The position numbers and the translations under genes were made by a program. Below the pieces are notes generated by a model, which ran no database searches, had not been told where the DNA came from, and worked only from the letters and a program-made list of their open reading frames with translations. A stretch of 48,986 bases of DNA, counting the filler, from Catajapyx aquilonaris (Eukaryota), in NCBI GenBank assembly GCA_000934665.2. It is 2 parts of 2 records of this genome, joined end to end, with 100 filler letters (N's around TTAATTAATTAA, not from the genome) between each part and the next. Parts side by side here need not be neighbours in the genome. Positions count along the whole stretch, not along the records: positions 1 to 24,429 come from JYFJ02005509.1; 1 more part is not named here. One strand, written 5' to 3'. Numbering within the stretch: position 1 is the stretch's first letter; the number at the start of each line of letters is the position of its first letter. Of this stretch, positions 1 to 28,800 are shown piece after piece.

Positions 1-119
1 TCAAAAAATATAAGCTCTTTTTTTCCTCCCCTATCCCTGCGAACAATCAACTTTGCTTTGATGTATTAACCACTTTGTATCCTTTATCTGACAGCCTGCA
101 TGACACAGGCCAAACGTAC

Positions 120-2575
120 CGTGCATTCCGGAACTTCTATGCAAGTGCTATTTCCAGGATAGCACTGCATGGGACAGTCATTCCAGGGTAGATTAGACTG
201 AAAGCTCTGCAAGAAGTAGAAGAGGCACCAGGCAATGATGGTGTTGTAGTAGAGGGCCACGTTGAATGAGACCAGGGCACTGGCAAGTCCTATGCCTCCG
301 AGGTACGGAGACACCTGGTTCCATACACCAATGGCCCCCTTTCGTAGCCTCTGCCCAATGGCCAGCTCCAGGAAGAAAATCGGGATGCCCTCTATCGCCA
401 GCATTATGAAGTATGGAATCAGGAAGGCTCCTACATGTACAATAATATCAATTAATTATGTCCAACATTGTTAAGAGACCGATGCGTACCTCCGCCGTTC
501 TTTTGAGCGAGGTACGGAAACCGCCAGACATTTCCGAGTCCAACTGCATACCCGATAGTCGCTAGCAGGAATGTAAGTTTGCTGTCCCATGATTCCCTTT
601 CTTCTCCTCCTCCTTCAGGCTTGAATCTATCCCTGTCGTCGTCTGGAACCACCGCAGCTCCTCCGCCCCCACCTGCACTCACACCACGACCTCCGACCTG
701 CCAGGTCAAATCATGAATATCAGCAGTGTTGTTCAAGCCACATAAAATACCTACTGAAGCCTATAGCACACTTCGGAAAGAACTTAACGAGGTTGTCGAC
801 TGGAAAAAAAACACCCAATATTTCTTTCTAGATTGACGCTTACGGCCTGTTAGAACTGAGGATATCAACTCGGCTTCGTTCAGGAATAGCATGTTAGCAA
901 GCTCTCTAAGCCCACCAGGGATTTACTCTCCGGCTTGGTTCGCGTATAATACACGCACGCTGCAATTTACGACCCGTTTCTCCCCTGAAAGGAGATTGTT
1001 CACAAATCATTGCTAAGTTATGACCAACGGAAAAGGGTGCACCACCACGGAGCAGTAAATGACGCATTTGCAACACAGGAATTGCCCTAATAACGGGGCT
1101 GTTTCAATGGAGCTCCAAATGATGCAAAGCAATATTCTTCTCGCGTTACGTGACAGTCTGTCAAAACGCGTCTCAGGAAGCTGTTATGGAATTGTAAATT
1201 TTAATGAACTCTGAAGGAACGCCCTCTATTCAAGGGGATGTGATATATCATTCAACAGCTACAGCGGATGTCCTACATGTTCAACACGGTCGTATATACT
1301 GGAGGCCTAAAGCCTTCAAGCAGGTCTGTGGAACAAATCCCTGACCTATCATAGCATTGATTGTAACTTAGGTGCACTTTGGGAATAATACTTTTGTACA
1401 GTTAAATCATCGTCTATTGCACCCAGGTTAACAGGATCATAATTATAGGCGAAGCGGTTATCCTGACTCTGAAGGGCCACCTTTGCGCCTCACTTGCTCT
1501 ACGGGCAGCCTGACAGATAGGATATAAACGTTTGCAATGTTCATCAAAATGTACTGTCAAAATCCCGAAATCCTGAAATCTTCAAAATACGAAACTTTTG
1601 AGAGTGCTGACATGACTCGTAGCAAGTGGAAAATTCCATATCAGTACGTATACAAAATTGTTTAAAATTTTTTTATAACCATCTCCAGGGTTAATGCATA
1701 ACCTATAATAATAAAATGTAGAGAGTATATGAATATCGCGGTCAGGCACTTCTGTCCCATTTTATAAATGCTAATATACAGATATTCCCCTGGATATTCC
1801 AATACTCGAAGAAATCCGAAATCCGAAAAACCGGTCCCAAGCATTTCGGATAAAGGATTCTCATTATGTAGTGCCGCTATGCGTAGCTAACTAATGGGAA
1901 TCAGTAGATTTGTCGTACCGGTATCATTTTCTTTGGTCGTTCTTGCATGTAAGACCACGGAAAACCGTTTTCGATAATTAGCTTTTTAAAGGGCCACTTT
2001 AAGCGTAGAAGATTTTGGCTTGAAATACGTACTGAATTAACGTGTAGGCAAATAAAATATGTCACGAATTATGCTTTACAGTACACGCATTATAAGTACG
2101 CTATGCCTACTATGTCTAAACACTGATTCGTAAATTGGGAATAAAAGAGCTGAGAGAGAAATGGGAAGCAATAGAGGGAAAATGTTGAACCCGACAGCCC
2201 TAATCCAAGCCCATCAGTGGTAGAAACCTGTTCTTTTGTTCGCACATACAAAGAATCTGGACCTGAGAAAATATTTGTCAGATCGGAGCAAATAATGGAG
2301 TCGGAAAAGGGGAGAAGTGTTGACGCAACTCGAAAAGTCAAGCTGCTTCTGAAGTGAGTGCCAGCTGTTGTCCTTCAGTCACAACACACCTTTCCAGGGC
2401 TGAGGTCCTCGAAGGCGACGTTTGTGGTTCCATAGTTGCCACTTCCTCCCCCAGCCCCACCTCCGTTCTCCACAAGACGACTCCTCATCTCCCGTAGCTC
2501 CACTCGATCTATGGACATCTGCGGACGCATGTCCCTGGAGCTCTGCCTCCGAACCAAATGCGCCATGTTCGACAT
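120..2575 (-). CDS. SLC6 family Na+-dependent neurotransmitter/neutral amino-acid transporter (SLC6A15-19/B0AT-like), 5' part; continues beyond the window's left edge
   Basis: Coding exons 2575-2390 (ATG in CAAAATG context; AAG|GTGTGT donor), 697-490 and 430-120 join in phase (0, 1). Hallmark SNF motifs [64 protein letters not shown] and LPW..C. Confidence 0.93.
1554..1868 (+). mobile_element. pogo/Tigger-type MITE resembling Tigger4/MER46 (Zombi)
   Basis: TA-flanked; repeated AAATCCGAAA motifs; GAAACTTTTGAGAGTGCTGACATGAC...GGAAAATTCCA near the 5' end; 3' end GGTCCCAAGCATTTCGGATAAAGGATTCTCA. Family match is from memory of the consensus. Confidence 0.65.
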
Positions 2576-5320
2576 TTTGAAGCCTCTTCTTCGTGTCTTC
2601 TCCCCGTGCTAGTGACGATGTACTGTGTGGGAGGAGACTGACTTATTTGCCTTGAGGGAAAAGTCAGTGAAGATGCATCTTGTGTGCTTTCGTCCTGGGA
2701 TTGGACCACGGAGCTCCAAGGTCGCTTTCGGACATTACTCTTAGCTTGTTTGGTAAAGGGGTTCCCTGCAAAGAGAGCAAGGATCTACAGGTTTGGCTCA
2801 TAACGTTAGACACGAGAGTAAATATTGTCCGAGAGGTAATAACGAGGCGGATAAAATTTGGTAGTAAAATTGATCGGAATAGGCAACGTCGCTTCCGCGG
2901 GTTTTACAGGCGACGATTGATTTCTCAAGTGCTATATCATCCGGAACCCCCCACAAACATTTTTATCCGAGTCTGGACACTGATTTTTATGCAGGGCACG
3001 ACATTCCAGAGGATTCTGCGGCTTTTCATTAGATTTTGTGGGGGTTTTAAACCAATTTTTGCACCATCCTTTACCCTACCAGTACAGGTTGGTATATCAC
3101 TAAGGTATTCCCAGGACTGCTGTTAAATTCGCCAGACCAATGGAATTCTGAAAGATTTACTTAAACGAGCAGTTTAACGTGCGATATGACTTTAACGTTA
3201 CATTAACGGTCCAGTAGGTGAAACAGATCATGTTTAAAATTTTATAAAAATCTGCTTCATGATTGTGTAAACCATCAATGGGTAATGCTGTTTACTGCAC
3301 CATTAGGCTCTAGCCGCAGTTTGTTAGGGAGAGTGTTTAATTAACTGTAACATTACATAACTGCATATGATAGACCAAGGTTTAATTTGATAACGCCCCG
3401 TTTTAGACCGAATGAGCATGACGTAATGTGATAACCTTTCCGAAGCCTAACCCTGTAATTACTCACGACTGATTGGCAGACAGAGGCTTTCGTTTTGATT
3501 TGAACGCAAAGTTGGACGTTGCGGAATTGAGACCTGTAGGAAAAAAGTTGGGCGTTGGTAATGTTCTTCCTCCAAGATTTAAGTGACATATTAGCATTTT
3601 GTGCTCATAAAAGGTCTCGCATACGCCCAGATGTAACGCAACAGGCGACCAGAAACGAGGGGGTGGACTGGAAGGGCAAAAAAAAATACCAGAGTCCTCC
3701 GGATAAGGAACTCCGGATGCTGTTGGTTCTTGGCCAAAACGATTGCATTTGGAAAGTTTCCTCACAATGACACGAAGGCATTCTTTTCCAGTCGGTTAGG
3801 GTTAAGAAAAAAGCACACCGAACAAGAAGACGATTGAGAGGGAAGCACACTTTTTAGTAGATGGGGCGTGTCTTATGTTGTCACCTTGGCTTTAGGAAGA
3901 ACAGAAACGTGCCTTTGATTATTAATTAAACGTGACACAGTTCCTAGCGAAAAACTCATCCCACCAAGTCGTAATCCACCACAGGCTATTGATTAACGGC
4001 ACCAAACACCCGTCCCTATACTAAATGGATCAAATGGAGCCACTGAATACTATGTTGTAATCAGCGTGCACTTTTTAAGGCGTGGCCCACTTTCTAAATG
4101 TTGTCTTCTCTGTTCGTGTAATATCCAGCTCAAAAAATTAATATGACTGCATACTAATTGGAGTGGTTCTAATTAGAGNAGCCTTGCAGTTATATCAACA
4201 ACGTCATACTGTGGGAGTCGGACATATGTCGTAAAAATTGTCACAATGTGAAATACGTGTGCAATATTAAACGAAAGAATGCTTGAAATTTCCTCTACAA
4301 GAAAGGCAATCGAATGTTATTTCCAACAATAAAGTGATGGATGAAAGTGGAAAAAAAGGTGGCGTTACAGCCCCACATAAATATTGGAAGAGGCAGTAAA
4401 GTCCATCGCCATTTTAACTGTAGTGTCCTAGCACTGTAGTAGGGTTCATGGCTGCAAAAAACTGTGATTCCCAACTAATATTTACTTTCACCCAATAGAA
4501 TTGAAAGTGCCAAACATTAGTTCCGGAAATTTGGTTATTCCAAATTAATTAAGCTTTTCCTGATCATATATTATTAAGGGTTTTCATGAATATCATAGTC
4601 ATCTCTGAATTCAAGAGTTTAGTTTTAAAAATGCACAAGTGCATGTCCGTAACTTTATAGATCTGACATATAGCCCAATTTGTCGATTTGTTCGCAGGTG
4701 CGACACATTGTTTCGCGCAATTTAGGCACGCTTATAACTTGTTGCTGAAATATTGATTCAATAATCTCAAATGTACACTGATACGGTTAACAAAGATGTT
4801 TCGTGCCTGATGCAGATAACAATAAAAAAGGTTGCTTTATGGAAAACGATTTCCTTTTGTGCTGGAGAAAGCGAGAGAGAATGAGCAAATTAGATCGTGA
4901 TACCATTACTGCAACTTCGCCTCAGGTGGAGTGGCTGCAAATTTCATTACTAAATGAGGTCACTGACTGTGTCACGACATCAATAACACTTAAATAATTT
5001 AAACGATTCAAAACCAACCGCATTTTTTTATGACCACTGGACAAGATAGTGATGACATGACATGCAACAAAGAGTAACCCAGGACATTGTAACCTTTTAC
5101 CCAAAATTTGTTAGAAATCTGCCAAAAGTGAACCCGACCTTTGCTTCAAGCAACAATTGAAATGTGACGGGAGGTGACAATTGGACACAAGTCAACAGTG
5201 GTACGTACCTCTGGGTAGTGCGTGCGATGGAGCCGGGAGCCAGGGGTTGGCGTCCAGGTTCCTATAGTGGTTCTTCCGAGGGCAGAGGTGGGGGCGGAGG
5301 TGGGGCCAAGAATATCAGTT
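2576..5320 (-). other. Putative 5'UTR exons of the SLC6 gene (2765-2576, 3533-3467, first exon ending at 5209)
   Basis: Strong minus-strand splice signals: acceptor ctctctttgcag before 2765, acceptor ttttttcctacag before 3533, donor gtgagt after 3467, donor gag|gtacgt after 5209. There is no transcript evidence and the TSS is approximate. Confidence 0.45.
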
Positions 5321-5457
5321 GTGGGGGCGGGGAGGGGGGAGGTGTTGTGAGAGCAAGGCGGAGGTGGGATGTGTGGGAGGAAGGGGGGGCAGGAGGCAGG
5401 GAAGGGAGGCCATTGATCGTCGACGCCAGCGCAACCTACCCAGGTCTGCTGACGTCA
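5281..5457. promoter_or_regulatory. G-rich promoter-like region with a perfect CRE (TGACGTCA, 5450-5457)
   Basis: Dense G-runs and GGGGCGG boxes at 5285-5410 plus a palindromic CRE, located between the divergent SLC6 and adhesion GPCR genes. Confidence 0.45.
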
Positions 5458-6553
5458 GTGACCTGCGCCCATTAAACTCCTTTGACTTCAGCTTTTTTTT
5501 TCTGTCCATTTGACCAAAAGTTCGGCGTCTTTCCAGAAACTCATCTTAAGCCACTTTGATGATTGCAATGCGTCTCTGGAGCGATTATGTGGCTGAAACT
5601 GAGCTGTTGGGCTACGAAATATTGTTTCATGATATCTCTTGTAAGAATGTTTACGAGTGTGACAATTTACCAGCATTTTTACATGGACCATAATTGTTTA
5701 ACCATATGAAATTAGTAATAAGTACGCATTTTCAGTTGCTTCTATAACTAAAGATGGCGATGTCTACAACATATTGAAAATGCGGTAGTACGAAAATTGA
5801 TCCTACAAATTAAATATACAGTACACGGAAAAATTAAGATAATCCTGGATTGTATTAATATGTGAATGTTGTGACGTCCGGTATTTCATAATTGTTGATT
5901 TCTTATTAAACAGCGACTAAAAATACATGACTTTACAGTTATCTATTCGGCCTAAGTCATAATGTTTCACATATTTCCATGACTTGTGTTGCAATGTGGA
6001 ATATTAATTGCAGTGCTTGTATAATGTATGTGTCGGTATGTGTAAACTTCTGTTTTTGGATAGTTTCCATGACCGTATCGATCATTCATGTAACAAACGT
6101 GGCTGAGAATGTAGACTGATGGAGAAGCCAGTACAGTAATGAGGTTATCAGAGGCATGAGGTCTTAATAATTAATAAGAAATGTCGGGTCGGGCGACCCC
6201 AAAATCTAGTTGCTTAAAGCAATATGACGCTTCTGGCTGGCAATTCGCAGGAATAATGTGAACACGCGATCTTTACTCTAGGTGCCCAGACAACGAGCAA
6301 AACACATATGGCTTGTAGTCCAGGAGACCTAACAGAAACGTCCCGTTGGCGTTCAGTGTGTGCGTCAGTGCGGTTATGTGTGGTGTGCAAATGAGTGCGG
6401 TTATGGATGTGTGCGCGTATGACTATAAATGAATGTTTGTTTGAATGTGGACATGTGTGTGTGCTCATCCTTCCAACGCCCACCTTACCCATGCTATAAC
6501 AGTGCACAATGTATATCACGGTTTAATTTGGTACTGTGTGAAATTCTCCACAG

Positions 6554-9500
6554 CTACGACAACACAGCGGGCCACAACGACACCTGCTCCAATTCATGAG
6601 ACGACGACAGAGGCTGAGGAGTACTACTACAGCACTGAGAGCCCGGCTGCAACTACAACACCACCACCACCTCCCACAGTCGTTACTCCTGCACCTACGA
6701 CAACCACAGTTCCTACGACTACTCCTGCTCCAACGACTACCCCTACTCCTACAACCACTCCAGCTCCTGTAACAACTCCTACTCCTACTCCTGCTCCTAT
6801 AACTACTACTACGACCACCTCTGCACCTATGACTACTACCACCACTCCTGCTCCTGAGACAACCCCGAAAGCTATCACTCAGGCTCCAGTCGTAGTTGAT
6901 GATGATGACGATGATCCATGTGGTAAGTGAGCGTCCTGGTAAGTGGAGTCAATGATGAGCTCAACAGACAGAGAGACTTATATGCCGCGTAATTCAGTGT
7001 ATTGACAGGGAGTGTTGAGATGATGTCTCCGCCTATACTGTGACCGGTACACAAATACGATATCCGTCTCGATTTTTCTTTTGCAGATGATCCGGGTTAT
7101 GAATACAAAAAAACAGCAGACTACTTTTGGCAGTACATGCCATTAAATGGCACCAGCGACAACGGATACACTAACGAATCGGGACCTGCTCCGGTTAATA
7201 CTGCCATCAAGCTGAATTCGGCTCTGAAGCAGGTGAAGTAGACAAACATAGTGAACATTTTAAGACATTATTGAGGCTTTCACTAAGACATTCTGGCCTT
7301 CGAGATTCAGCAGTGTCCAAACACTTATGAATCATTTGAACTGCATAATATTCGCCAGCAATTGATAGGATTTTATATTTACCGGTATTGTACGATGTTG
7401 CTTTCAGTGTTTCGTTGACAACGATTGGGCAAAGGAAGATGACAAGTGCATGGAGAACATGGATTGTGGAGACGGACTTTCCTTCGCAATTTGGCAAAAG
7501 ACCACCTTCACACCGGACATGTTGCAAAATCCAGATAAGTATCCCCCGATGTACCTCATGAGCACAGGTGGAGACATGCTTCCTCCGGACGACTCTTCAG
7601 AAGGCAGACCCATAGGAGTCCCTGGTGTGTCCTTATACCACCAAGGAGCCAATGTAGTAGCCATATTATCTGTCGGAATAAAAACCTGGAAGCTGACAGT
7701 CACTGGGCAGGTCAAAAACAACACCTGGACCAATTACGCTCTCAGATGGAATTACGCCAGAAAAGACGGAAAAAGAGCAGGTTTGGAGGTAAAACGTTGT
7801 GATTTGAAAAACGTAAATTTTTGCTAATCCTTGATGCTTCAGATGTTTATGAACACCATAAGAGTGGGACAAAGAGTATTTCCCGATTTTACAACCCCGA
7901 GGGCATCTCCGTTCAAGACGCCAACGCTTCTGGTTGGGTGCCACCAGAGGTTAGGTTCCAGGGAACGGACAGGGTTCTCCGACTCTAGCCTGGATGAAAT
8001 AGTGATATGGGAACATCGAATCCCTAACCATTGTAAAAAAGTGTTTCTTGGAGGATATCGTAAGTTCTCATACACCTTGTCACTGACATGTCTTTCAAAA
8101 ATACAAAAATACGGTATGTTTTTCTTTCCAGTGGTTAGCAAGGAAAATGAAGTGAAGCCTTTACTATCAGCCAAGAATATCGATGCTGTGGATTTCAACA
8201 GTCCAGAAGCTGATGAGAAAACAGATGACCTGCTGCAAGACTTCGCTCAGCAGACCACACCTCCGCCTCATAAACATACTCCCCCACCAAACAATCATGC
8301 AACCCCACCTCCAGCAGGTGTCAAAGTGTCTACAAGTATGTCACTGTCTTGTGCATGATGTTCAGGTGGACTCTGCCATCCTACTGGATCTAAATCCACC
8401 AAATTCCTGCCATATTGTCAATTTCTCTCTAAATAATGTATTCTTGATCGCCAGCTCTTTCTCCAAGAGTAGAAGAGTCTGCGATGACCGTAGAAGCCTT
8501 CTCTAGACTTATGCGCCAATTGGCCAATGCCACTATAAAATCGAGTGATCGTGTGATTTCGGCCATGGATAATTTCCTCCGACTGGCGTGGTCTCCAGGT
8601 TGGAAGGTATTGCCAAAGAAAAATCTGCCCGGCATTACCAACACCCTTCTCGACTTTCAAAAGGCGTTGATGAATTATCTGAAAGCATGTAAATTAAATA
8701 ATTGCAACATGAACTCGAAGGACAACAGATTAATGGGTTAGTAACTTGGGTGAAGTTAGTGAAGTGTGAAGGCTAATCACCTGGCACAAAAATTACGACA
8801 TTTTCTGCCACTCAATATATCTTCTTTGCATGACACCTTGCATTCACAGAAGTGGATATGGTAAAGATGCCAGTGAAAGACTTTGAGGCACAAAAAGTAT
8901 GGAATTTAGCCGAGAATCAACCCCGCATAATAAAGAGGAGTGCTTCAAGCGAAAGCTGTCAAAATGCAACACTTGTGCAGAACTTCCAAGCACTCAGTAC
9001 GTACTGTATACACAATGTAACCGATCTAACAGAGGCATGCGGTGCTCATTAAAATTGTACTTGTTTTCAATGCAGTGGATACGAAGATATTCAAAAATGG
9101 ATGTGAAAATGAAAGTGTGTCTCTAGTCGTTGCTCAATACAAGACAGTGGATCAAATGGCTTCAACAGACGCGACTAAAGTGTAAGTTTGAAGTCAATGG
9201 GTGGAGGTCACAATGTAGTATACACGTGCACTATGTCGATAACAAACGTATTTAATTAATTTTCATTTACTGTATTTGTGATACCTTTCGGGAGGGCGGA
9301 GCTTTACTTCGATACCAATAAAATCCTTTTTCTTCCTCAGCTACATCGAGTCCCCATATAGGTCCTTGGACAGCATGATATTTTCTGTGAACTTACTGGT
9401 CGATACACCATGTACTCTCGATCCGAACACATTCTCTAGGAAAAATAACCCGGCAGTGATAAGGTTGTGCTTCCCACACCGAAACAAAGTCAAATCTATC

Positions 9501-11406
9501 CAAAATCCTACATTTCAAGGCAGTAAAGAAGAAACCAATGTAAGGGTGTTGCAACATAAAAAAGGAACCCGTAATACAACTGTGTTATCTCGATTTCAGA
9601 TAACTATGAGACATTGCACAGTTTGGAACCCAGCCTTTGAAAAATTCGGAGCATGGGACACTGTGGGATGCAAGAAAATTGATACTGGGCCAAATGGGAC
9701 CATATGCGAATGCAGCAAGTTCGGGATGTATGCAATCGTAGCGGAGAACATCGAACCCAGGGTAAATGAGGTTTATTTACGCATTCTTGGCAGCTGCCAA
9801 TCTCATCTTATTGTGATTGGATAGCCAGAACGCAAAGGTCCAAATGTGATCCTGACACGAATGCTTATTGCCATATGCCGCGTGTGCTTGTAATGAACCC
9901 GATAAGCCTTAGGGAGGCATTCTTGGACGCTATAGTTGATTTATTTTTATTTTTTTTTCAAACGAGAGATGATTTTGACTATGAACATGAGCAGTTACTG
10001 GGATTATGGACAACAATCAACAACTCGACTTTTCCATACGTATTTTAAGTGTTTCAATGCAGTTTTGTAAAACTGCAATCTTATTACATGGACTAGGCAG
10101 TCTCGTTTGCACCTTCCCTATATAATTGCAGATACCACCGCAGGAGTATGAATGGCACCGCCTTACCAAATACATCTTCACCGGAATATCCTGTTTCCTT
10201 CTTCTGGTGTTCCTGTCCACCATTATGTTCTGCGGGTACGTACTGTATATGTCAAAAAAGGGGGGTACCGAGTACTAATCAGATGCTTTGCAGTAAGGCA
10301 ATGTGGGAGCAGTTCTACCTGCTGAGGTTCAACTTCGGCCTCTGCGTCCTGGTTGGTCTCATTACGTTCTGCGTGACGGACATGGACACTGTCAGGGGTG
10401 ACCGTCAGACCTGTACTGCATTGGGAGCAGTCCTTCAGATGTTCTACATGGCTGCCCACTGGTCACTGGCAATGGACGGTCACTCCAGCTTCTCAGCCAC
10501 CACCAGCGGAATTTATGGAGGAAAACTGAAGGGCTATCTGGCCGTGTCTTGGGGTATAAATCCAAATGATTTGTGTCAATAAGTGGTTTAGATTAGCATG
10601 AATTGACATCTCATTTCGAACAGGCATGTCTTTCCTGTCCATGGGGATTAATTTCCTGAACTACAACACGGTCTTGGGGACTGAACCGACGTGCTTCATA
10701 GCTTGGGATGACGTACCCAAATGGATCTTCTTTGCTCCTGTGCTGGCAGCCATGATTGTAAGATCACCCGTCATACTCTATACACTTCACTCTAAAAGTC
10801 TAAACGTTGCACCCTTTTTTCCAGTTGGGTTTGTTCTTCAGTGGTGTTGCTGTGTTCAACCTGTCCGGAAAAAGAGGACTGGTCAACAGCGAGTCCCTCA
10901 CTCAGGAAGTGAATTCAGTGGCCATAGGCAGCTTCGGCACACAAGCATACTTCTTCATTACGTGGCTCTTTGCAAACGTGGCGTACATCAGAAAGGGAAC
11001 CTTGGGAGGAAAACCTCAGTTTTACAACCCGTTTCACTTTTTAAACTCATGCTCGGTACGTCGAGATGTCTTGCAGCTCTAACTTCAACTCAAATTCTGA
11101 TTCATTCTATAGGGAATTGTGATATTCGCGTTCATGGCTCTGGGGTCGTCACGGTGGAGGACAACAATCACTGGGCAGGCTAAGAAAAGGGTCAGTGTCG
11201 ATGCCGATTTAGAAAGTAAATAGGCATGTAACGTACCCATTGGCACGTTTCTATTTTAACAGAAGGAAATTATGATGAGAGAGGTATACCGTGATGGCAA
11301 GAAGAAGAAGACCAGGAACACGACTCCAAAAGGACCCCAGGAAGGCATCCACGAAACACCAGTCACCCCAGCTTTGAGTGACGACCCTCTTTTTGATCCT
11401 CGGTGA
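6554..11406 (+). CDS. Adhesion GPCR copy 1 (mucin-like Thr/Pro stalk, LamG/pentraxin-like domain, GAIN/GPS, class B2 7TM; ADGRD-like architecture); N-terminal exon not identified
   Basis: 16 phase-consistent GT-AG exons: 6554-6922, 7087-7232, 7408-7788, 7843-8059, 8132-8335, 8455-8736, 8850-8996, 9076-9181, 9341-9539, 9600-9761, 10132-10235, 10294-10553, 10624-10757, 10825-11055, 11113-11190, 11263-11406 (about 1050 aa). GPS-like CTVW...WDTVGC...CECS, seven hydrophobic segments, TGA at 11404-11406, AATAAA at 11592. Confidence 0.88.
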
Positions 11407-12111
11407 ATGATTTATTGCACCACTGGGATATAAGTAGTGAATGTAAAATTGTATCTGAGTCATGTGTCTTATAAGGTCGCACTTATTAAAGTTTAAACAC
11501 AAATACTGCAAGATGCACAATAATCTCATTTACAGGCAAATGCAAGTACCGGTACCGTATTGTAAAGGCACAATTTTTACACAAGTCATCCAATAAAAAA
11601 TATTCATCTTTCAGATTTGATTGTTTTAAAGTGACCACCATGTCGTCAAATTCCACTTACAGATAAACCACTTTACTCTGATCAGTTGCTTCATGGCAGT
11701 GCAAATATAGATCCGTAATTTTCAACACTATTCATAGAAGGGAAGACGTTGTCATGCACACAGGTATAATAATCCTCATAACAACTCGGGCAAGAAAGCT
11801 CGCTTAGGTGCGTGACACTGCAGCTAGATGTAATCAATAAGATTGAGGAAACCTATACACGCCATGGAACCATTCCGTGTTTTCAGGATAGTGCCATCAA
11901 CACACTCTGTAATGATTGTTCTACAGGTGGTTAGGAACACACTTTCCACGAAATGATTGTCTCGTAACTTACATAAACAAGCATTATTTTCGACACTTTA
12001 TGGGGTTACAAAATTTAACGACTATTGCTATAAACGTGTCAATTTAACATTCCAGGTTACAAATTTGTATAACCTTGAATCAAACCATTTGACATTAGGG
12101 ATGTTAAAATA

Positions 12112-13066
12112 TTTATTTATTTTATTTATTTATTTATTTATTTATTTATTACATACCCCATGATCTGGCCTTTAGGCCGATTTTTAGGGGGACACAACCG
12201 CTAGTTACACTCATACACACAACTGGATACGCTTATAAACATTTAGGAAGAACGAGTACAGTTGGAAAATTTGCTGTTTTGTTAGATTATGAAAAACAAA
12301 AGATATATGTTCTAAAGGGATGACAGATAAAGTACCAAGATAGATTTTTCGAGGCGTGGTGAATATGGGGCATTCAAATATAAGTGACCGTGATGTTAGG
12401 GGGATGTTCAAATTGCACCAATCACAATTTTCTTCACTAACCACTTGTATTGATGTTCCTGACTTTATGGGAAGATATTTCGAGCAATTTCTTAGATTTA
12501 TCATCATGCGCTGTAAGTAGAGGGGTAGGCCGTACGTAAGATATGCTTCCAAGCCATGGTCCAGCTTAATCAGTTTGTAATGATTATATCTGTGAGTTTG
12601 TTCCAGTCTTAATAGCAGTTGGGCTTTTAACTGGAGTTGTACTTTAGTATGTAGTAACGATAAATCAGTCTGTAGATCGTGCCACGTTAACCCAAGTTGA
12701 CCCAATAATGTGAGGCAGGAGTTGCGCCAATTTGGTTTATTGGGAGCAATAGAATAGTCATATGCCATTCGTAAGATTGAATTCTCCGGTAGTTTATCAA
12801 ACTTAATTATGAGTTTTGCAACCGATTTAATCAAATTTAGTGTTAAAGGGACTTGGCCAGTTTCCAAATAGACAAAGTATGAAGCTGTATTTCTAGGTAA
12901 TAATAGGAGCTTTTTCAGGAAAAAAAGTTGGACTTGATTCAGAACCTCATATTGAGCTAAGCCCCATATCTGAGCTCCGTATAGTATTATTGGGAGAATG
13001 TGGGCGTTGAATAGCTTAATAGCTACTTGAATATCGCGTAGTTTTAATTTAATAAGGCTTGTCCAG
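12112..13066 (-). mobile_element. 5'-truncated non-LTR retrotransposon (LINE), ORF2 C-terminus
   Basis: Open frame 13065-12211 (…LFNAHILPIILYGAQIWG…LETGQVPL…CDWC…LIFECP) typical of the post-RT and Cys-motif region. (TAAA)n tail at about 12112-12150; target-site duplication GGGATGTTAAAATA at 12098 and 13067. Confidence 0.88.
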
Positions 13067-13756
13067 GGGATGTTAAAATATAACTTTACAATGGTATTTA
13101 TTGTATGGGCAGTATTGCCTTTATTGGACAGAGACCCCCAAAAAATACGTAGTGATTCATGGAAGAGAATATATTCCGGGTTAATTTCTCAGTACCGTAC
13201 TGCATTGCACACGTAGTATTAATCTTGCTAAAAATGAGTGAAGTTGCACCCTTCTTAGAAAAAGAAACCCCTCTTGAATTGTGATTTTGAGTCAGTGCTC
13301 GTCCCTCACATGAAAAATGATAGCACTTTTGCTTCTCATCCTGGCCCTTACCATCGAGGTCATCAACAGCGTGGGTGTCAAGTTTGGAAAATGTCATGGG
13401 TCAATAATTGATTATTATCATAATCCAACTGCCTCAGTCACTCGCTTAATCATAAGTGCTCCTTCTTAGTAACAACTACACACGCAACCTCCTGTGTCCC
13501 AACGACTGGCAAAACAAATCGCGGTAGTCCAGGGTACCGCATGTAACACAAAGACATTTTGCAAGCAGTTGTGCGTTGTGTCTGAGTTGTGAATGGTGTA
13601 CAAATGATCTGTGTTTAATTGCGTGCCTGAGTGCGAATGTTCTATTGCGTGAGTGTGCGTGTGTTCCCTCTTCCCCTCTTTATAGGCCAGCGATAACCTC
13701 ATGAACCACATAGGATATTTCGCATTATTTGTGCGCACAATGCTTTTTTCCCGCAG

Positions 13757-16700
13757 CTACGACAACGGTACAACACACTACAGTGGCTGTCATTCACGAA
13801 ACAACCACTGTGTACGTGGCTCCAGTCGAGACAACTACACCACCTGCTGCAACCGAGGCTCCTACAACGACCACGCCAGTCGCCGGGACAACTCCTGCAC
13901 CTACGACAACTCCAGCTCCTGAGACTCCAAACCCAACAACAGCAGCTCCTGAAACGCTTCCACCAGAAACAGCACCTCCTGAGACTCCTGCACCATCCAC
14001 AGCAGCCACTGAGACTCTTCCGCCAACCACTGCTCCTCCTGAGACGCTTCCTCCAACCACAGCAGCTCCTGAAATACCTTCGACTACAACAACAACTGCT
14101 GCTCCAACTACAACTACCAACCCAATCCTAGATCAGGATTTTTGTGGTAAGTGCAAGTACACCTACTCTAGAGTGATAAAGGAGCGTTGTTGCAGGACCC
14201 CACAGAAGCAACGTTACATCTGTCATTTCAACAAGGTCTCATCAGTATTATTGCCAATTTCACTTTCAGGTAGGAAGAGTACTGACTATGACGACACGGC
14301 AAACTATTTTTGGCTGTACATGCCACAAAACGCTACCAGTCCCAATGGCTACAAGAATGTCACGGGACCATCCAAGTCCGACCCTGCCATCAAGTTAACT
14401 TCGACCTTACGACAGGTAACGTGGTTCTCTATACGTCTTGAAGAATAATGATCATCCAACAAACACTTGCTGCTTCTTTCAGTGTTTCATTGACGACGAT
14501 TGGGCACGGAAAGGCGACAAATGCGTTCAGAACATGGACTGCGTAAACGGATTTTCCTTCGCGATTTGGCAAAAGACCATCTTCACACCGGACATGCTGC
14601 AAAACCCAGGCAATTATTCGCCGATGTACCTCATGAGCACCGGAGGAGACTGGCTTCCTTCCGACGACTCTTCAGAAGGCAGACCCATCGGGGTGCCTGG
14701 TGTGTCTTTATACCACCAAGGAGCCAACATCATAGCTATTCTCTCTCTCGGAAGAAAGACGTGGAAGCTGACCGTCTCTGGGCAGGTTCAGAATGACACT
14801 TGGACCAATTACGCTCTGAGATGGAGCTTTGCCTCACAGCAAGGAATTACTGGAGGTTTGGAGGTAAATTGAACGTTTCAGGGTTCGTCTCTGCCCAAGC
14901 TGACTACCTGTAATCCATCAACTCTGATCCGACCACCTTGGGCAGAGAAACACCCCGTGTAATTTTTTTTGCTAATGATTGATATTGCAGCTGTTCATGA
15001 ACAACGTAAAAGTGGCGCAGAAAATATATCCCGAGTACACAACCCCGAGAGAGTCTCCGTTCAAGACACCAACGCTTCTGGTGGGGTGTCACCAGAAGTC
15101 AGGTTCCGGGGAACTCACAGGGTTCTCCGACTCTAGCCTGGATGAGATGGTGATATGGAAACATTACATCCCTGACGAATGTACAAAAGTGTTTCTAGGA
15201 GGATTCAGTGAGTATACTCAACCATTTACATTGTCGGTTGTGAAAACTAATGCACACTCTTTCCACGCTTCAGTTGTTAACGTAACTGCAGTCTCAGACA
15301 AAGTGTTTGAGAATTTGGACATGAATAATCCGAAAGCTCAGAAGGAAATGCAAAACATCCTTCAGGGCCTTTCTAAAGTGACTAATCCGCCGCCTCCGAC
15401 TGGTGGTACCCCACCTCCAGTTGCTCCAGGTCGAGCTCCTCCACCTGTAGGTCCAGGTGGTGTCCTGATAACAAGTATGTTGGCCATTTGAGAAATGTGT
15501 CTTGTGCCCAATTCTATATGCTTTTCAAATCTCGTTTATCACATGAACCCCAAAATGTATTGTTGGTTCTAATACTATATCTAATGTGCAGTGTGTTATG
15601 TCAAAAGACAGGTAATCTGACAAGTGAGTTCAAAATAACGTTTTTATTTCCTTAAATAATTTGCCTCTATTGTATTCCAACAGCTCTGTCACCTGAGGTA
15701 TCCAAGGAGTTAGACACGATAGAAACATACGTTAAAGCGATAGATGCAATGATCACCACTCCTGTAGCAGCAAGCCAGGATATAAAGCCTCTTGTGCAAC
15801 AGGTAGTGGATAGCACCAGCAACTTCTTCCAACCACAATGGGCACATGGTTGGAATGCCCTGAGCGTGAAGAATAAACCAGGGATTACCAATACACTAGT
15901 CAAGGTGGATAAGGTGTTGATGCACGAGCTGGTGTCATATAAAGGAAAGCTTCCCTATACGTTCTCACAAGCTACAGATCAGATGGGTATATGAGCTATA
16001 AGTTTCTTAGTTCTGATAAGAGCATGATGCGTGACATAAAATGTCGAGTGAATGCATTTTAATTCTTGGATGTAAATTAATGTCATTCAAAACTATTGCT
16101 ATGTCAATGAGACATTTTTATCCTACCAGAGCTAACGATGTGGCAGATGACTGTCAAAGACTTTGCAGCACTGAAAACTCTGACTTTAGCTGAAAACAAA
16201 CCAAGAAAGAAGCGAAGCGCTACAAATAATTTATGTGTTGAGGACTACTTTCAAGCATTCTGTAAGTAGTCTCTGGGCACATGACCAATATGCAGTCATC
16301 ATTTTAACATTGCTCCTGCCTTCAGTGGACACACAAATATTCAAGAAGGGATGCAACATGGAAAATGTTTCCCTAGTGACAGTCCAATACAAGACAGTGG
16401 ATCAAATGATCTCCACTGAGGCTACTAGGGCGTAAGTTTTAAATAACTGCATATAAATGCATCTGATACACAAATTATCACGCAAAACATGTTACCTCCT
16501 TCAGCTTCATCAACACACCATATAGGTCCCTGGACAGCCTGATATTTTCAGTGAACTTGAGGGTGGATCAGCCATGCACTGTTGATCCCACTTCTTTCAA
16601 ACGACTCTGGGAAAAACGCGAGCTGCGATTGTGCTTCCCCCATCGCAATCATGTCTTCTCCAAGCGAAGCCTTATGTTTCATTCCCCTAAAGACGACACA

Positions 16701-18631
16701 AATGTAAGCACACAGGTCAAGATAATTACCACATGACAGTTTTCAGAAGCCATAACTTTGATGGGTCATTGCAGATAACGGTCAGGCACTGTGCAGTTTG
16801 GAACCCTTCGCTTGAAAAATTTGGTGCTTGGGACACCCTGGGATGCAGCCTAAAGGAAACAAATGCTGACAGAACTGTGTGTGCTTGCTCACAGTTTGGG
16901 ACTTACACTCTCCTAGCAGAAAACACCGAACCAAAGGTATAACCATTTTCGGTAGCATACAATTTTACCACATGCCAATCTCCTCTTGTCTGCTAATGAG
17001 GTGCTCTTCACTGTCATAATTTGCATATGACAGCATACTCGTATGTGAAAAAAAAGTTTCGAAAAAGTATTGAACTGTTACATTTGTCCCATACTGAAAG
17101 CTATTATTGTGCATGAAAATCTCCTGCCTGGAATAATTTTTGTACAGCACAGCAGAAGACACTCCTGCATTTCCAGGATTTAGGTTAAATTCACATTTCT
17201 CAGACAAAATTCAGTTCAAGTTCCTGTTTCATGTTGTGGATTTTACATACAGAAAACACCTGAAGAAGAGTCATGGTACCATACCACAAAGTATGTGTTC
17301 ACAGGAATATCCTGTGTCCTACTTGCCATTTTCCTGGCTGTAATCCTGGCATGCGGGTAAGCAGATGGAGATTATTTTACTCTCAAAGCAAAAAAAAAAA
17401 AGTGATTGTCCCTCTCTTTCAGAGCAAAACTCTGGGAGCAATTCTACTTGCTAAGGTTCAATTTCGTCCTGTGCACTTTGGTGGGACTAATTGCATTATG
17501 CATAACTGACATGGACACAGTCAGAGATAACCGCCACACCTGCACAGCAATGGGTATCATAGTCCACTTGTCCTACATGGCAGCACACTGGCTCCTGGCC
17601 ATGGATGGACACTCGAGCTTCTCAGCTGCTACAAATGGAATTCTTGCAGGAAGACTGAAGGCCTATGTGGCATTGTCTTGGGGTGAGAATACTTGCCTGA
17701 ATAACATTGTGGTCCTAGTAAATCTAAACCAGTGATTTTGGTAATCCGGGTTGAAGTGAATTAATATTGGCAGGTCACAGCATCCAAAAATGATCTGTAC
17801 TACAAACTCAATAATTATTGTTTTCCCTAGGTATGGCTTTCTTCACTGTAGGTGTCAATTTCCTGAGATACCTTATGCTCTTGGGAACTGAACCAACCTG
17901 CTTCATTTCCTGGGATGATCAACCCAAATGGGTCTTCTTTGCACCAGTCCTGTTCATTATGTTGGTAAGCACATCAATTTACACCATCCTAACCACACTT
18001 GGTGTCATAAATATGATTGTCTCTTTCCAGATGGGTTTGCTCTTCAGCAGCGTTGCAGTGTGCAACATAGCTGGCAAGAGACGCAAACTGAAAAGTGAGG
18101 CCTTAACTCAGGAAGTCAATTCAGTAGCCATAGGAAGCTTCGGAACACAGGCGTACTTCTTCATAACATGGTTCATTGCAGTCTTTGCCTATGTCAGAAA
18201 GGGAGGCTTAGGAGGAAAACCAGAGTTGTACATTCCATTTCAATTACTCAACTCATGTTCGGTATGCAAGGACATTTTTGACCTGGCTTGATTAGGGGCT
18301 TCCACATGCATATCACAATTTATGTGCTCTTTCCAGGGAATTGTAATCTTCCTCTTTATGGGCCTAGGATCAACACGATGGAGGACAACAATAACTGGGG
18401 AGGCAAAGAAAAGGGTTAGTGTTACATGAATTGTCGGGTGCATTCATGTACAGTACTTAGTACTTACAGATTTTTATCCATTAGCAACAAGAATTCCATC
18501 ACAGAAAGAACATCCATAGCACAAGACCTGTGGTACCACCAGAGACCATACCAGAGACCACACCAGACACTATACCAGATGCTCCTGTCACTCCAACCTT
18601 AAGTGATGACCCGCTTATTGATCCACGATGA
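13757..18631 (+). CDS. Adhesion GPCR copy 2, tandem paralogue of copy 1; N-terminal exon not identified
   Basis: 16 exons: 13757-14146, 14270-14415, 14483-14863, 14991-15207, 15274-15474, 15684-15986, 16130-16261, 16326-16431, 16505-16703, 16775-16936, 17253-17356, 17423-17682, 17831-17964, 18031-18261, 18337-18414, 18485-18631 (about 1060 aa). Intron phases match copy 1 and 11 of 16 exons have identical length. Confidence 0.88.
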
Positions 18632-19211
18632 CTCTCTCATTAACACATCAGCACTTAAACTTTTAACAAGTGGAAAGAAATGTACAATGCATTCAAGACT
18701 TCTTTCCTGTACACCAACATTTATTAGCAAGTGTGAAGTACATTGTCCCATCCTGAACCACCACTCGATTCTCACAGCTGGAGCATCAGACTTTGTTAAG
18801 CATGTTATGATATTGGAAAGTGGAGAAAATAAGTGCTAGAGAACCAAAGCCAAGAATGAAATGCACTCTGTTTAAAGACAAGAAAAATGAAAAGTGCGGA
18901 ATGCAATCAAAAATACTAGGATGGTAGTCCAGCTTATTTAACAGTTTGCGGAAGACGTACAAAAAGAAAAATATGCACATCTCTCAAAATAAAAAATACT
19001 CTGTTAGGTGCAATAAGTAGTTATAATTTTTTTTACACATGTACATGTACATGCAACATGTTTACATATGCTCACCCTCACTAATCTTCACTCCACTGAG
19101 TGCAGTTATAAAACAAACGGGAAACACTCGCGTAGAAAACTCGGAAATAAAATATTAAGTCAAATGAATTTGCACAAGTGGAAGTTGAGAAATGTAGGAG
19201 GAAAATATATC

Positions 19212-20540
19212 TTATTTGTCTTTCTTGTGTGCTTCTTTCCTACGTGAATCCCTCTTTTCCTTCTGATCATCTTTGCTTTTTTCTGCTTCATCACCGGGAT
19301 GATCTTCGTACCTGCAGGATAATGAAAAAATATTTTTAGGTACAAGAAGACCACTCAGAAACAATTCCCTTAGACACATCTTGCAAGCATCTTCTTTGAC
19401 ACCAAAGTCACATATGAATCCTACTTCTTAATCAAGTACTTACTGAAATAGAACCTTGAGGTCTCCTTTCAGGAGAGCAAGCAACATTGGCGCCCCAAGA
19501 CAAGCCGGGACCAGATAGAGGAGGGCAGGCTGGGCATGGCGGAACGTGTGCATCACCATAATGGTGGTCAGGAGGCCCACCAAGTATGCCAAAAAGGACA
19601 CTGTGAAGTATAGTTTCGTATTGCGCTTCAGGCTGAAAAATGACAAGACATTGTTAATACCAGGACAATTAGATTGCTGAAAAATAACAGAAAAGAGCTC
19701 GTGTGGGAGTCCTTTTTTAACAAGGGCCATAATTATGTCACCTAGATCAACATACAGAGAGGCTGTAGCTGAGGGTATAGAAATTCATTCCCTTCTTTTC
19801 CATCATCTCTATTCCACTGGTTGGGCATTACTAGACTTTAAAAAATAAAAATCATGTCCTGCTAAGCAAACGTCAATCAAAATAATGTAAGAATTTGCAC
19901 AACATTTGTAATTGACAATTTTAACATGTATATTGGTCCGTTGTTGTCCCATTAAACCACAAGAAGACCCACATTACCTGTAGTCAAACCGAAGCAGCAA
20001 AGCAATGAAGATCCCTGGGATGACAATGTCCCCGAGTCCAAGCATGGCAAAATTATTGGCTTGCAAGCCATGGTCAAGAAGATCTTGTGGAAAGACCAGC
20101 TTAATGGGAGCTTCAAATGACTTGGCCACAGTCACCATCACGTTCGTTCCAAACACCCAGAAAATGTCATAGACAAAGAGGCCGCTGAGTAGGATGCATC
20201 CAGTAACCACATTGTTTAGATGCAACAGCTCCACCCCATTGATGGCAAAAGCGATCCCAAAGAGGTTGTTGGCCACCCAGTGCTTCTGCCACAAGTACCA
20301 AATGCCCAGAACGGAGCAGACAGCCACACAGACCAGGTCGTGGGAGTTGAATCGATAATCTATCAGCTCCTCTTTGTCATTCCCAGTTCCCTGTGTGAAT
20401 CGAAGGTGATAGGGAATGTTGGGCACTGAACCTGGGATCAGCCTTCCAACGGCGGGGCTCAGAAGGTGGCTCAAGGCCAGGATGCCCAGGAAAAAGAAGT
20501 AGCTTGTCAAAAGAAGGTTGATGTATTCCTTCGAAAACAC
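19212..20540 (-). CDS. HM13: Signal peptide peptidase (minor histocompatibility antigen H13), last three exons; 5' exons not found in the window
   Basis: Exons 20540-19978, 19632-19444 and 19311-19212 join in phase. Catalytic YD (VYDIFWVFGT), LGLGD and QPALLY motifs; C-terminal KKDK* ER-retrieval signal. Confidence 0.95.
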
Positions 20541-20853
20541 CTGCAAGAGAATATAGAAGTGTCACAAAAGTATATAAAATATATGGAAATTACGACAGGC
20601 AAGGATGACCTTGTTCCCCCAGGTATTGATTAATGGAAATACTCTACTTACATCCTAAGGTAAATCCACTCATTTGCTTTCCATAAAATATTTTTTTCAT
20701 TAACTTTCTAGCACATAACTGAATTCCCAGTTGTCCCAACTTTGAACACCACCGTAATAGAGCTACATTGGACATTTTAATCTACTGGCACACACAGTCA
20801 AACAATCACGGCTATAATGTAAAAATCGGTAGAATGCCTCAATTTTGCAAATA

Positions 20854-25637: not shown

Positions 25638-25843
25638 TTATTGATTCATATATAATAATTAGGGTATCATTTATGGAAAACAGCTAATGTTGTTGCAGTA
25701 TTTTGATCTGGACCACGTTGAAAACTCACCATACTTGTTGTGACTATCACTTAAGCTTAGTTGAGTACATATCACCTGGAGAACGATCTACCCTACTGCT
25801 GTAGATCTTGACTGAGATTTTCATACCACCTTTGTCTTTTCAG

Positions 25844-28800
25844 TCGCGTCACAACATGGAAGAGTTTGAACTTTTCACCTTGGATGATGTTGATGCTGCT
25901 TTTGATAAGATTATTCAGCTAAAATACAACCAAAGTGTGTCCCTTAAAGGAAAAGGGTATGGGCTGACCATTACTCCTCTTCCTGCTGGTCACATGATTG
26001 GAGGCACAATATGGAAGATTGTGAAGGTTGGAGAAGAGGACATTGTGTATGCTGTGGATTTCAATCACAAGAAGGAGCGGCATCTGAATGGCTGTGAACT
26101 GGAGAAGATTCAAAGGCCATCACTACTTATTACAGATTGCTACAATGCCCTCTACCAACAGGCCAGGAGGAGAACCAGGGATGAGAAACTCATGAGTTAG
26201 TCACATTTCATTCTTGGGCTAGCTAGAGTGGAAATGTAGAACAATCATCTGCATGGTAGCAATCATGAACTCTCTGAGTACTGCATGCCGATAAAATGCA
26301 TTATATACAGTCAAACTTCTATAAGTCGAACTTCCCTAAGTCGAAGTTCTCTGTAAGTCGAAGAAAATAATGAGCTTGGTTGGTCAAAATGTAAAATAAT
26401 AGGAAATAAACTTCCCTAACTCGAATTTTTATAACTCGAAGTTCTCCATAACTCGAAGTGCATGCAGGGCCTTACGATGGGATATCAATGCATTTTCAGT
26501 CTCTAAGTCGAAGTTCATGTTGGCGAGTACAGAAAATGTACTCATTTCCTAGTCGAAGGGTCGAGAGTAGGCCAAATGCACAGAAATGCTCAATTTCCTG
26601 ATCTCCGTCTACCAGACGTACCGAAAGAAGTGTTTAACTCGATTGTGACAATTGAATCCTTGAATCTAAGTGTAGGCAAATGTTCATAACTGAGTTTTTT
26701 TTTACAACAAAACAACGAGGAACATTGTAAGTGTGATAGTGACAGTTATTTTTAAGTTTTGAACACCTTTTGTTGCTGGATATAAAGGTAGGCTTCCTTA
26801 TAGAGTTCTGTGCTTTAAAAAGCCAAACTTCTCTAACTCGAATCTTCTATAACTCAAAGTTTTTTCCTGGTCCCATGGAGATTCGACTTATAGAAGTTTT
26901 ACTGTATATTTTTTCACTGAGGGATTGGCACTGAAGTGCACACATGATTACAAGTGCTTCTGATATAAGGAATCATTCGGCTCTCCTGCGATTCCCATTT
27001 TATGCTTGTAGGCTCATGACATTCTCCAAATGAGAGATAAATGCAGCAATGAAAGTTACCATGTTCCATCTATTAATAAGAAAAATGTTGCAGTGATAAT
27101 TTTAGCTTATTTTCCTCAGTCCATGACACTATTGCTGGGTGGAAAATTGCCAGAGAGTCGTAGGTGAGGTGTTGGCTTGGGTGTTGGTCAGGGAGTCTTG
27201 ATAAGTGAAGCATGCAGATACTTGTGTTAATATAGCATGAAATGCCAGCCAATTGTTCAGTGCTTTATTTTCTTGCCCTATTGACACTGCAGATGTTAAA
27301 TATTTTCTATACAGATTAAGGCCTGTTTCCAAAGAAGCTTCAGCTTGAAAAAGTGTGTTCTGGCGCTGGCTCTAGCTCCAGCTGCAATGCATTTCTAGCG
27401 CTGGGTTGATATTCAAGCAGCTTGCTTCAACATCGTACTCCTGTTGATATTTCAAGCTAGTGATAGAGCTGGAGCTTCCTTCTGACCAATCCGCGCAGCT
27501 CCCTGTGGTCATGTGCAGCCGTCTCGGTCGAGAGGTGACTAGGGGTGGGGCGATGACGCGGGGTGGGGAGGCCGGGGCATAGTGAAGAAGGAGAGAGGAG
27601 AAAAAAAGATGACCAGTCGGAGGTCACGGAAGGAGCTCGGGCAGAGGGCCCTGCTGATGCAGGGGGAGGCAGCATTGAGGAGCGACAGACTGGTTAGCAA
27701 CCTCAAAAGAGTGACCTTTAGCCTGAAGAGCAATCTCCTCCCCTCCGTTCTGATCACCATCTTGGCTTTCACAAGCTGGCGTGAGCTGGAAAGCAAAAGC
27801 TTCTTTGGAAATCGGTCTGAGGGTGCTAGCTGTGAAGCACCACCTAAGGTGAGCTCCAGAGCTCACTTTTTCAAGCTGAAGCTTCTTTGGAAACGGGCCT
27901 TTATCCTTTATGTGATTGTGAAGTCCAGTAGCAGTTTCTTTTGCACTATGATCACATGGGAAGTGAGTTGATAACAAAGTAATAACCTCTGAGTTTGTGT
28001 AAAGTGGAAGATGTGCACCATCCCCCATCTGATTACTGCATTGGTAACGTTAGTCTTTGGTCAGTTTTAAAATAGTCAATTCAATTTGCAATTCATCTCA
28101 GAGGTAAGCAAGGGTTTGGCAGTGAGAATGATCATCTACAGTGCACAATCATCAGCAGTGTCCGTCAGTGCTACTGAGATCTGCACACTCGTCATGTGCA
28201 TTATTGCCTATCAAATGTGACTAAATCATGTTTTTAAATGTAGTTCTGCGTGTTTTGTGAGCATGCAAAGTAAAGGACCCTTATCTTAATCTTTAAAGAG
28301 GGCCTCAAAGTAAGTGCAAAAGTTGTTGCCTGATTTGTTAATGACCCGAAGAAGTCTCAGTTACAAACTTAGTGCATTGGTTCAGATAGTTTCAGCCACG
28401 GTAGGAATGTAAAACTTTTCTACAGGGTGTTTCCAGTAACTCTGTAAAGACTTGCAGGGGTAATAGAGGGGACCAAGACAAGTATTTTTGACATAGGAAC
28501 TCGTGTCTGGAAACGCCGTCTAGAGGGGGTTCATAGACAAGGAACGGGTGCGCTCAGACTCATCACGAGGGAGGCGCTAGGCGAGCGGACTGTTTTGTTG
28601 ATACATGGCGCTTGGATGGTAAACAAAGGTGCGATGTGTCATATTAAACCTGGCAACAACAGATCCATCTAGCAACTAAAGTCCGCCTTCTAGGAGATGC
28701 GTGGAGAGTAAAGAACAGTTCTTTTGTTGCCAGGTTATGGCTTATCGCATCGTTGTTTGCTTACGCCATAACCTGGCAACAACTGCATGCCATCTATCAA

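Follow-up and report, generated by a model that had tools for sequence, protein, structure and literature searches.

Tandem adhesion GPCRs of Catajapyx aquilonaris apparently belong to an undescribed subfamily with glycine in place of the GPS nucleophile

Two neighbouring genes, gene 1 and gene 2, located on the plus strand of a 48,986-nucleotide stretch of Catajapyx aquilonaris DNA (assembly GCA_000934665.2; the whole stretch is referred to as the window), encode adhesion-type GPCRs (G-protein-coupled receptors) of class B2. In both, a LamG/pentraxin ectodomain is present, GAIN and GPS lie ahead of the first transmembrane helix (TM1), and the seven-transmembrane (7TM) region is of class-B type. 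Both apparently represent an undescribed, non-self-cleaving subfamily whose relatives are already in databases under automatic names. We consider it fairly probable that they are tandem paralogues within this old crustacean/myriapod subfamily and signal independently of cleavage.

To our knowledge, it is still unsettled how far adhesion GPCRs rely on self-cleavage, and exceptions are known only from individual genes here and there. In the present subfamily every sampled member, be it from decapods, an isopod, a barnacle, ostracods or a millipede, carries Gly at the nucleophile position and keeps the toggle Trp. The subfamily offers a comparative panel and natural test for cleavage-independent signalling which includes aquaculture species where expression data and RNA interference are feasible.

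Domain architecture and activation motifs

Positions 1 to 19500 of the window were read, the splice sites fixed and both genes spliced by coordinates (Table 1). An earlier note on this DNA had described two 16-exon genes with equal intron phases and intact frames, which proves correct: both genes contain 0 internal stops, all 30 introns (15 per gene; 54-370 nt, median 72.5 nt) are GT-AG, and the phases are identical at 15 of 15 positions. The two proteins agree in 605 of 1024 aligned residues (59%). All motifs quoted in that note (C..GLSFAIWQK, YLMSTGG, WTNYALRW, LDE.VIW) are present, the first one reading GFSFAIWQK in gene 2. The mucin stalk it had proposed exists as a mucin-like segment, with 50 Ser/Thr and 26 Pro among the first 120 residues in gene 1 and 46 and 27 in gene 2, but sits N-terminal to LamG and not between LamG and the membrane.

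The proposed LamG/pentraxin, GAIN/GPS and 7TM content could be substantiated as well. On single exon frames Pfam GPS exceeds its cut-off for gene 1 and gene 2 alike (E 4.3e-7 and 3.2e-9), Pfam GAIN gives a weak match on one exon (E 0.032), and neither Laminin_G_3 nor 7tm_2 is matched. As the exon pieces of the pair alone gave no match, the latter two assignments rest on the Atlas, which places exon 3 with Laminin_G_3 clusters (0.94; 24 of 30 matches), and on full-length homologues, in which 7tm_2 exceeds its cut-off in 12 of 13 members of one set and 8 of 10 of another, and Laminin_G_3 in three (P0011, P0038 and P0051).

Structure models were made on a Penaeus homologue whose N-terminal half was refolded with a deeper alignment, the LamG domain having first shown predicted local distance difference test (pLDDT) values below 50 in large stretches; the mean pLDDT of the refolded half is 84. 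Residues 1-231 of the model adopt a ConA/LamG/pentraxin fold (PTX3: Z 15.6, root-mean-square deviation (rmsd) 3.3, 172 residues aligned; ADGRG4 PTX: Z 13.0, rmsd 3.0, 152 aligned), which alone cannot separate glycan-binding from protein-binding LamG domains, and residues 236-474 a GAIN fold (BAI3: Z 14.2, rmsd 3.9, 206 aligned). The full-length homologue model comprises seven helices and matches GAIN structures of CD97 and BAI2/3 as well as 7TM structures of ADGRD1. The first ranks of the LamG fold lists are taken by binding domains of clostridial neurotoxins; since these share only the common ConA-like fold at 8-16% identity, no functional hint was taken from them.

Autoproteolysis at the GPS requires the motif H-X-S/T, whose Ser/Thr is the nucleophile (PMC13062082). 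In an alignment of 25 rows, consisting of the pair and 23 homologues of at least 750 aa (two rows near-identical, one without GPS), the residue at GPS+1 is Gly in all 24 rows that have the position, while position -2 is His in 5 of these rows. Because Gly stands in place of the nucleophile, the subfamily should be uncleaved at the GPS, and an absence of autoproteolysis is what the established GPS mechanism most likely predicts. The stalk of the pair reads Y+3, V/L+6 and A+7, and Met at Stachel position +7 occurs in 0 of 24 rows. The claim of non-canonical activation motifs thus holds for GPS+1, for Met+7 and for the missing class-B switches considered below. Invariant in 25 of 25 rows are the toggle Trp6.53, Asn5.50 and both disulfide cysteines, followed by Gly7.50 in 24 of 25; the 7TM region is the most conserved part of the family (mean identity 0.41). 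In one branch of the subfamily (P0001, P0002 and P0037) two of the four GPS cysteines are also lost.

Relatives and phylogeny

A search with a TM4-7 profile yielded 26 proteins among 1.84 billion representatives, and a 7TM profile, scored on 8000 candidates, matched 17, of which 15 had not come up before. A word-indexed search with the full-length profile gave 3 matches; the LamG exon compared to longer proteins retained 0 of 156 candidates, and the TM4-7 profile compared to solved structures produced one chance match only. Those homologues that align in one piece cover LamG to 7TM, with E-values down to 1e-111; the homologues share with the pair the domain order and Gly at GPS+1, and fall with it into one 7TM clade. 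In contrast, identity to the pair amounts to only 24-29%, and Tyr2.50, Asp3.50 and a one-residue shift of the TM3 Trp are found in the pair alone.

The named records comprise 16 species, i.e. 11 decapods, an isopod, a barnacle, two ostracods and the millipede Chamberlinius. None is from an insect, a chelicerate or a non-arthropod; as many matches are unnamed and the searches non-exhaustive, this does not establish absence. Examples are the uncharacterised predicted LamG-GAIN-7TM proteins of Penaeus vannamei (XP_027210871.2), Darwinula stevensoni (CAD7245337.1), Chamberlinius hualienensis (GAB6025808.1) and Amphibalanus amphitrite (XP_043240416.1). Automatic names are inconsistent, ranging from D1-like, L2-like, L4, G2-like, B3 and CELSR2-like to latrophilin and uncharacterised. 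Displayed homologue N-termini (P0007-P0051) contain no evident signal peptide; most start just before LamG and several open with a Pro/Thr-rich stretch, which suggests that annotations generally miss the subfamily's true N-terminus. P0045 starts with a Cys/Gly/Trp pattern in which an additional domain may end.

A 7TM tree of 40 rows unites the pair and 23 homologues in a single clade (support 100/100) on a stem of 2.27 changes per site, apart from Cirl-type, Flamingo-type, array, ADGRG-like, secretin-type and Methuselah-type genes of the C. aquilonaris genome. These outgroup proteins are spliced predictions which we take to be of the named types by motif recognition and, for Flamingo, also by the Pfam list of P0036. 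Partial or poorly predicted sequences (P0046, P0020 and the own-genome C4364m and C1483) were left out of this tree, and the trees contain no human, Remoulade, Mayo, Ketchup or ADGRA-type sequences. The same picture emerges from a second tree with 27 rows. Gene 1 and gene 2 are sisters (100/100); the trees fix neither the position of the pair within the family nor the sister group of the latter. The subfamily is old and common to crustaceans and the millipede, with the pair as a branch of its own. A grouping of the pair with the Cirl-type gene of the genome is rejected by the approximately unbiased (AU) test (p-AU 1.1e-46) and only one of four 7TM introns is in common, which rules out a Cirl orthologue. 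The check on whether the pair nests within a described arthropod orthogroup accordingly placed it with neither Cirl nor Flamingo. The high divergence noted earlier belongs for the most part to the subfamily as a whole, with a stem of about 2.3 changes per site, to which some changes specific to the pair are added.

The Drosophila adhesion GPCRs Cirl, Flamingo, Remoulade, Mayo and Ketchup likewise possess GAIN and class-B 7TM, yet none has the architecture of the pair, and Cirl, Mayo and Ketchup self-cleave. Compared by description, Mayo and Ketchup (ADGRX) consist of GAIN and 7TM only with a canonical cleaved GPS, whereas the pair has LamG and no triad. As the earlier note had stated, none of the five is assigned to ADGRD, as far as the available parts of the same source reach (all PMC13197933). 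The earlier note's view of a little-characterised clade is in line with the literature: in full texts, with supplements and subscription journals outside the scope, no paper describing the subfamily was found, and the available parts of PMC6900090, PMC8584163, PMC13197933, PMC12716839, PMC6341585, PMC6426647 and PMC6408891 hold no description of it. Adhesion GPCRs of invertebrates can often not be assigned to any vertebrate subfamily (PMC6900090). In a land-crab survey, five receptors are listed as putative latrophilins with no details on their domains (PMC6341585), and a member of the subfamily may be catalogued there as latrophilin.

Signalling mode and competing readings

In the signalling mode which we propose, the LamG domain would bind a matrix, glycan or cell-surface partner, and tension or a conformational change would be relayed through the intact GAIN to the 7TM region. 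The latter would couple to G proteins via the retained Trp6.53 core, with no free tethered agonist being released, as is reported for CELSR1 and CELSR3. G-protein coupling, ligand, force sensing and expression of the pair are predictions only, and we hold the mode as a whole to be reasonably probable. The best functional model for the subfamily would be CELSR3 and CELSR1 (ADGRC), which carry Gly or Ala at GPS+1, are uncleaved and couple without needing the tethered agonist; CELSR3, with the same Gly, couples to Gs and tolerates Stachel/tethered-agonist mutations (PMC10592476). Unlike the pair, the CELSR proteins contain cadherin, EGF and LamG repeats, and the Flamingo-type rows form a separate clade (100/100); no cadherin or EGF domain was found in the pair or the scanned homologues. 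Best GPS sequence and GAIN fold matches are obtained for ADGRB2/B3 (BAI2/3), which have Ala at Stachel +7 as well and are cleavage-resistant (PMC13062082). In contrast to the pair they keep Ser at +1 and possess HormR and TSP domains; no BAI 7TM is among the matches.

Several points weigh against cleavage-independent signalling by the pair. Several class-B switches are gone, Pro6.47 being found in 0, Gly6.50 in 1 and Gln7.49 in 0 of 25 rows, and the pair has Tyr2.50 (His in 23 of 25 rows) along with the shifted TM3 Trp. Due to the missing switches and the pair-specific changes, G-protein coupling could be weak or nil. Stachel position +3 is aromatic (Tyr/Phe) in 23 and +6 aliphatic in 24 of 24 rows; since these are kept and autoproteolysis-deficient ADGRF1 still binds its own stalk (PMC9046087), tethered agonism without cleavage may still take place. 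Furthermore, the folds were predicted on the Penaeus homologue and not on the pair's own spliced proteins, and the gene models derive from genomic DNA alone with incomplete 5' ends.

A rather unlikely alternative is that the two genes are arthropod orthologues of ADGRD1/GPR133 with Stachel signalling that reaches the 7TM region uncleaved. ADGRD1 shows the same order of pentraxin/LamG (Atlas row Laminin_G_3 100%), GAIN and 7TM, four named homologue records are automatically labelled D1-like, and with both family profiles ADGRD1 is the top match among solved structures (120.3 bits compared to 95.8 for ADGRL3; with a deeper profile 106.2 compared to 100.5). With the deeper profile, however, the margin is down to about 4-6 bits; among 7TM-only chains ADGRD1 comes first by about 4-12 bits, several human subfamilies having given no 7TM row. 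Other homologues are labelled L2, L4, G2, B3, CELSR2 or latrophilin, and the trees held no human sequence. The TxFAxLM stalk with its Met+7, the His2.50-Glu3.50 bridge and the Pro6.47-x-x-Gly6.50 kink in TM6 of ADGRD1 are all missing in the pair; this kink is a feature of ADGRB, ADGRD, ADGRF and secretin receptors and is needed by ADGRD1 (PMC9046087). Because kink, cleavage triad and Met+7 are absent and GPS and GAIN are nearest to BAI2/BAI3, our term for the pair is ADGRD-like as regards layout, and we do not assign it to ADGRD. The resemblance to ADGRD put forward in the earlier note therefore stands for domain order and best match, but the margin is small and the ADGRD1 hallmarks are absent.

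The intron sites of the 7TM region also bear on this question. Those of the pair lie in the first intracellular loop (ICL1, phase 2), TM4 (phase 1), TM5 (phase 0) and TM7 (phase 0), and are used by 8, 7, 4 and 6, respectively, of nine secretin-type gene predictions of the same genome; three matches are exact in the alignment, whereas the ICL1 site differs by two columns but falls on the same position when counting starts at the TM1 Ser. The Cirl-type gene has one of the four in common with the pair, the Flamingo-type gene none. Nordstrom et al. (2009) reportedly linked ADGRD to the secretin receptors by their splice sites. That all four introns occupy secretin-type sites, and that ADGRD2 is reported to adjoin the secretin receptors (PMC8584163), would favour ADGRD1 orthology, but these common introns may simply be ancestral. 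The secretin-like intron layout bears on the origin of secretin receptors among adhesion GPCRs.

Less probable still, and in our opinion doubtful, is that an outside protease takes over the cut: a proprotein convertase would cleave a basic site in GAIN (Table 1), and the nick would let ligand or force expose the agonist strand. Both paralogues, as well as P0037 and P0041, which lie on separate branches, carry the site at one and the same GAIN position, which in the modelled homologue is about residue 407, in a stretch of low confidence flanked by two strands. It is, however, present in only 4 of 25 rows and lacking from 21 of 23 homologues, so that convertase cutting is not the mechanism of the subfamily. 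Moreover, gene 1 has no Arg at P4 and is only dibasic, Met+7 is missing, and the beta-sandwich would probably stay interlocked if a surface loop were cut. The basic site might serve as a lead for convertase priming, not as a family trait.

Slightly less credible again is a combination of both ideas, namely that the subfamily is a missing arthropod ADGRD/secretin-adjacent branch which lost autoproteolysis before crustaceans and myriapods split, with a convertase cutting GAIN in some branches including the pair. If true, an adhesion GPCR would possess a priming switch under external control. The least probable reading, a pure adhesion or scaffold role of a 7TM region no longer coupled to G proteins, could invoke the several lost class-B switches, the extra pair-specific TM2 and TM3 changes and the long stem branch, but is at odds with the 7TM region being best conserved across the family and between the paralogues (dN/dS 0.21), and with invariant Trp6.53 and Asn5.50.

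Duplication, gene models and neighbouring sequence

Between the paralogues, the LamG-to-7TM region shows a nonsynonymous divergence (dN) of 0.29 and a synonymous divergence (dS) of 0.98 (dN/dS 0.30), which shows purifying selection; by part, dN/dS is 0.21 for both 7TM and GAIN-B, compared to 0.51 for the linker/GAIN-A. The 15 orthologous intron pairs all align at shuffle level, which argues against a recent duplication. The pair is an ordinary tandem duplicate which, in our preferred reading, arose within its own lineage, with both copies functional. Pseudogenes are ruled out by the intact frames and the dN/dS of 0.3, and one gene assembled twice by the 59% identity and the unalignable introns. 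In the LamG exons dS is low (0.59, compared to 1.58 in GAIN-B and 1.02 in 7TM); gene conversion long ago, or additional constraint, may be the cause.

The earlier assumption of a lineage-expanded clade was not upheld. LamG-exon and TM2-4-exon searches of the genome returned only gene 1 and gene 2 each time, the counts being lower bounds; with 2 copies, a large local expansion is ruled out, and the clade is old and common to crustaceans and the millipede. Modest expansions do occur elsewhere, since decapods carry several paralogous branches of the subfamily. Of 22 GPS matches in the C. aquilonaris genome, 20 lie outside the pair, and the junction is H-L·T (the dot marking the cleavage position) in all 18 displayed. 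Fifteen GPS matches (L006-L023) stand in tandem arrays on four contigs (C609, C771, C1063 and C541), with canonical H-L·T, an intron layout of their own and a separate clade. An adhesion-GPCR expansion hence exists in this genome, but of a different, cleavable clade.

Table 1. Positions of gene 1, gene 2 and their features along the window
Feature	Gene 1	Gene 2	Strand	Remarks
Gene	6554-11407	13757-18631	+	16 coding exons each; 1053 aa (gene 1), 1062 aa (gene 2); 5'-incomplete
Exons 1-8	6554-6922, 7087-7232, 7408-7788, 7843-8059, 8132-8335, 8455-8736, 8850-8996, 9076-9181	13757-14146, 14270-14415, 14483-14863, 14991-15207, 15274-15474, 15684-15986, 16130-16261, 16326-16431	+	
Exons 9-16	9341-9539, 9600-9761, 10132-10235, 10294-10553, 10624-10757, 10825-11055, 11113-11190, 11263-11407	16505-16703, 16775-16936, 17253-17356, 17423-17682, 17831-17964, 18031-18261, 18337-18414, 18485-18631	+	
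Mucin-like exon, Thr/Pro-rich	6554-6922	13757-14146	+	N-terminal to LamG
LamG/pentraxin-fold domain, exons 2-4	7087-8059	14270-15207	+	Atlas, homologue Pfam, homologue fold
GAIN region, exons 5-10	8132-9761	15274-16936	+	Pfam GPS and homologue models; domain start approximate
Basic site in GAIN	8933-8944	16210-16221	+	gene 1 KR-S, dibasic only; gene 2 fits R-X-K-R
GPS junction	9720-9731	16895-16906	+	K-F·G (gene 1) and Q-F·G (gene 2) in place of H-L·T/S
Class-B 7TM, exons 11-15	10132-11190	17253-18414	+	alignment to homologues above Pfam 7tm_2 cut-off
Upstream conserved block	6243-6530	13462-13731	+	short 5' exon or regulatory element, either possible
Candidate signal-peptide exon		13317-13370	+	putative; top hydrophobicity of ATG scan, 3.52

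The first listed exon of both genes opens at a phase-1 acceptor and contains neither start codon nor signal peptide, from which it follows that at least one upstream exon is missing from both models. An ATG scan upstream of gene 1 gave weak signal-peptide candidates only, and no clean splice path from the candidate signal-peptide exon to the mucin exon was found. The upstream conserved block is a UG-rich element of about 290 nt located 5' of the mucin exon, with 61% identity over 300 nt between the paralogues; it is kept although similarity is gone from all 15 introns. Its local score between the paralogues is 88 (300 shuffles: mean 27, maximum 43). By eye it may contain a short Thr-rich phase-1 exon (6282-6314; 13470-13523) whose donor is weak. 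Compared to the rest of the genome the block gave self-matches only, and Rfam at gathering score gave 0 matches in 5000-19500. The C-terminal tails of the two proteins are divergent, but their last residues, encoded at 11395-11403 and 18620-18628 and ending in D-P-R, are near-identical, which suggests a conserved binding motif.

Between the two genes, a 325-codon open frame on the minus strand (12214-13188) gave no Pfam match; in appearance it resembles the C-terminal portion of a protein from a LINE retrotransposon. Elsewhere in the window an SLC6 transporter (Pfam SNF; 87-760, minus strand) and a signal peptide peptidase (Peptidase_A22B; 19215-20561, minus strand) are found. At about 25800-41900 on the plus strand lies a gene with an RMMBL Pfam match, which we take to be CPSF2-like.

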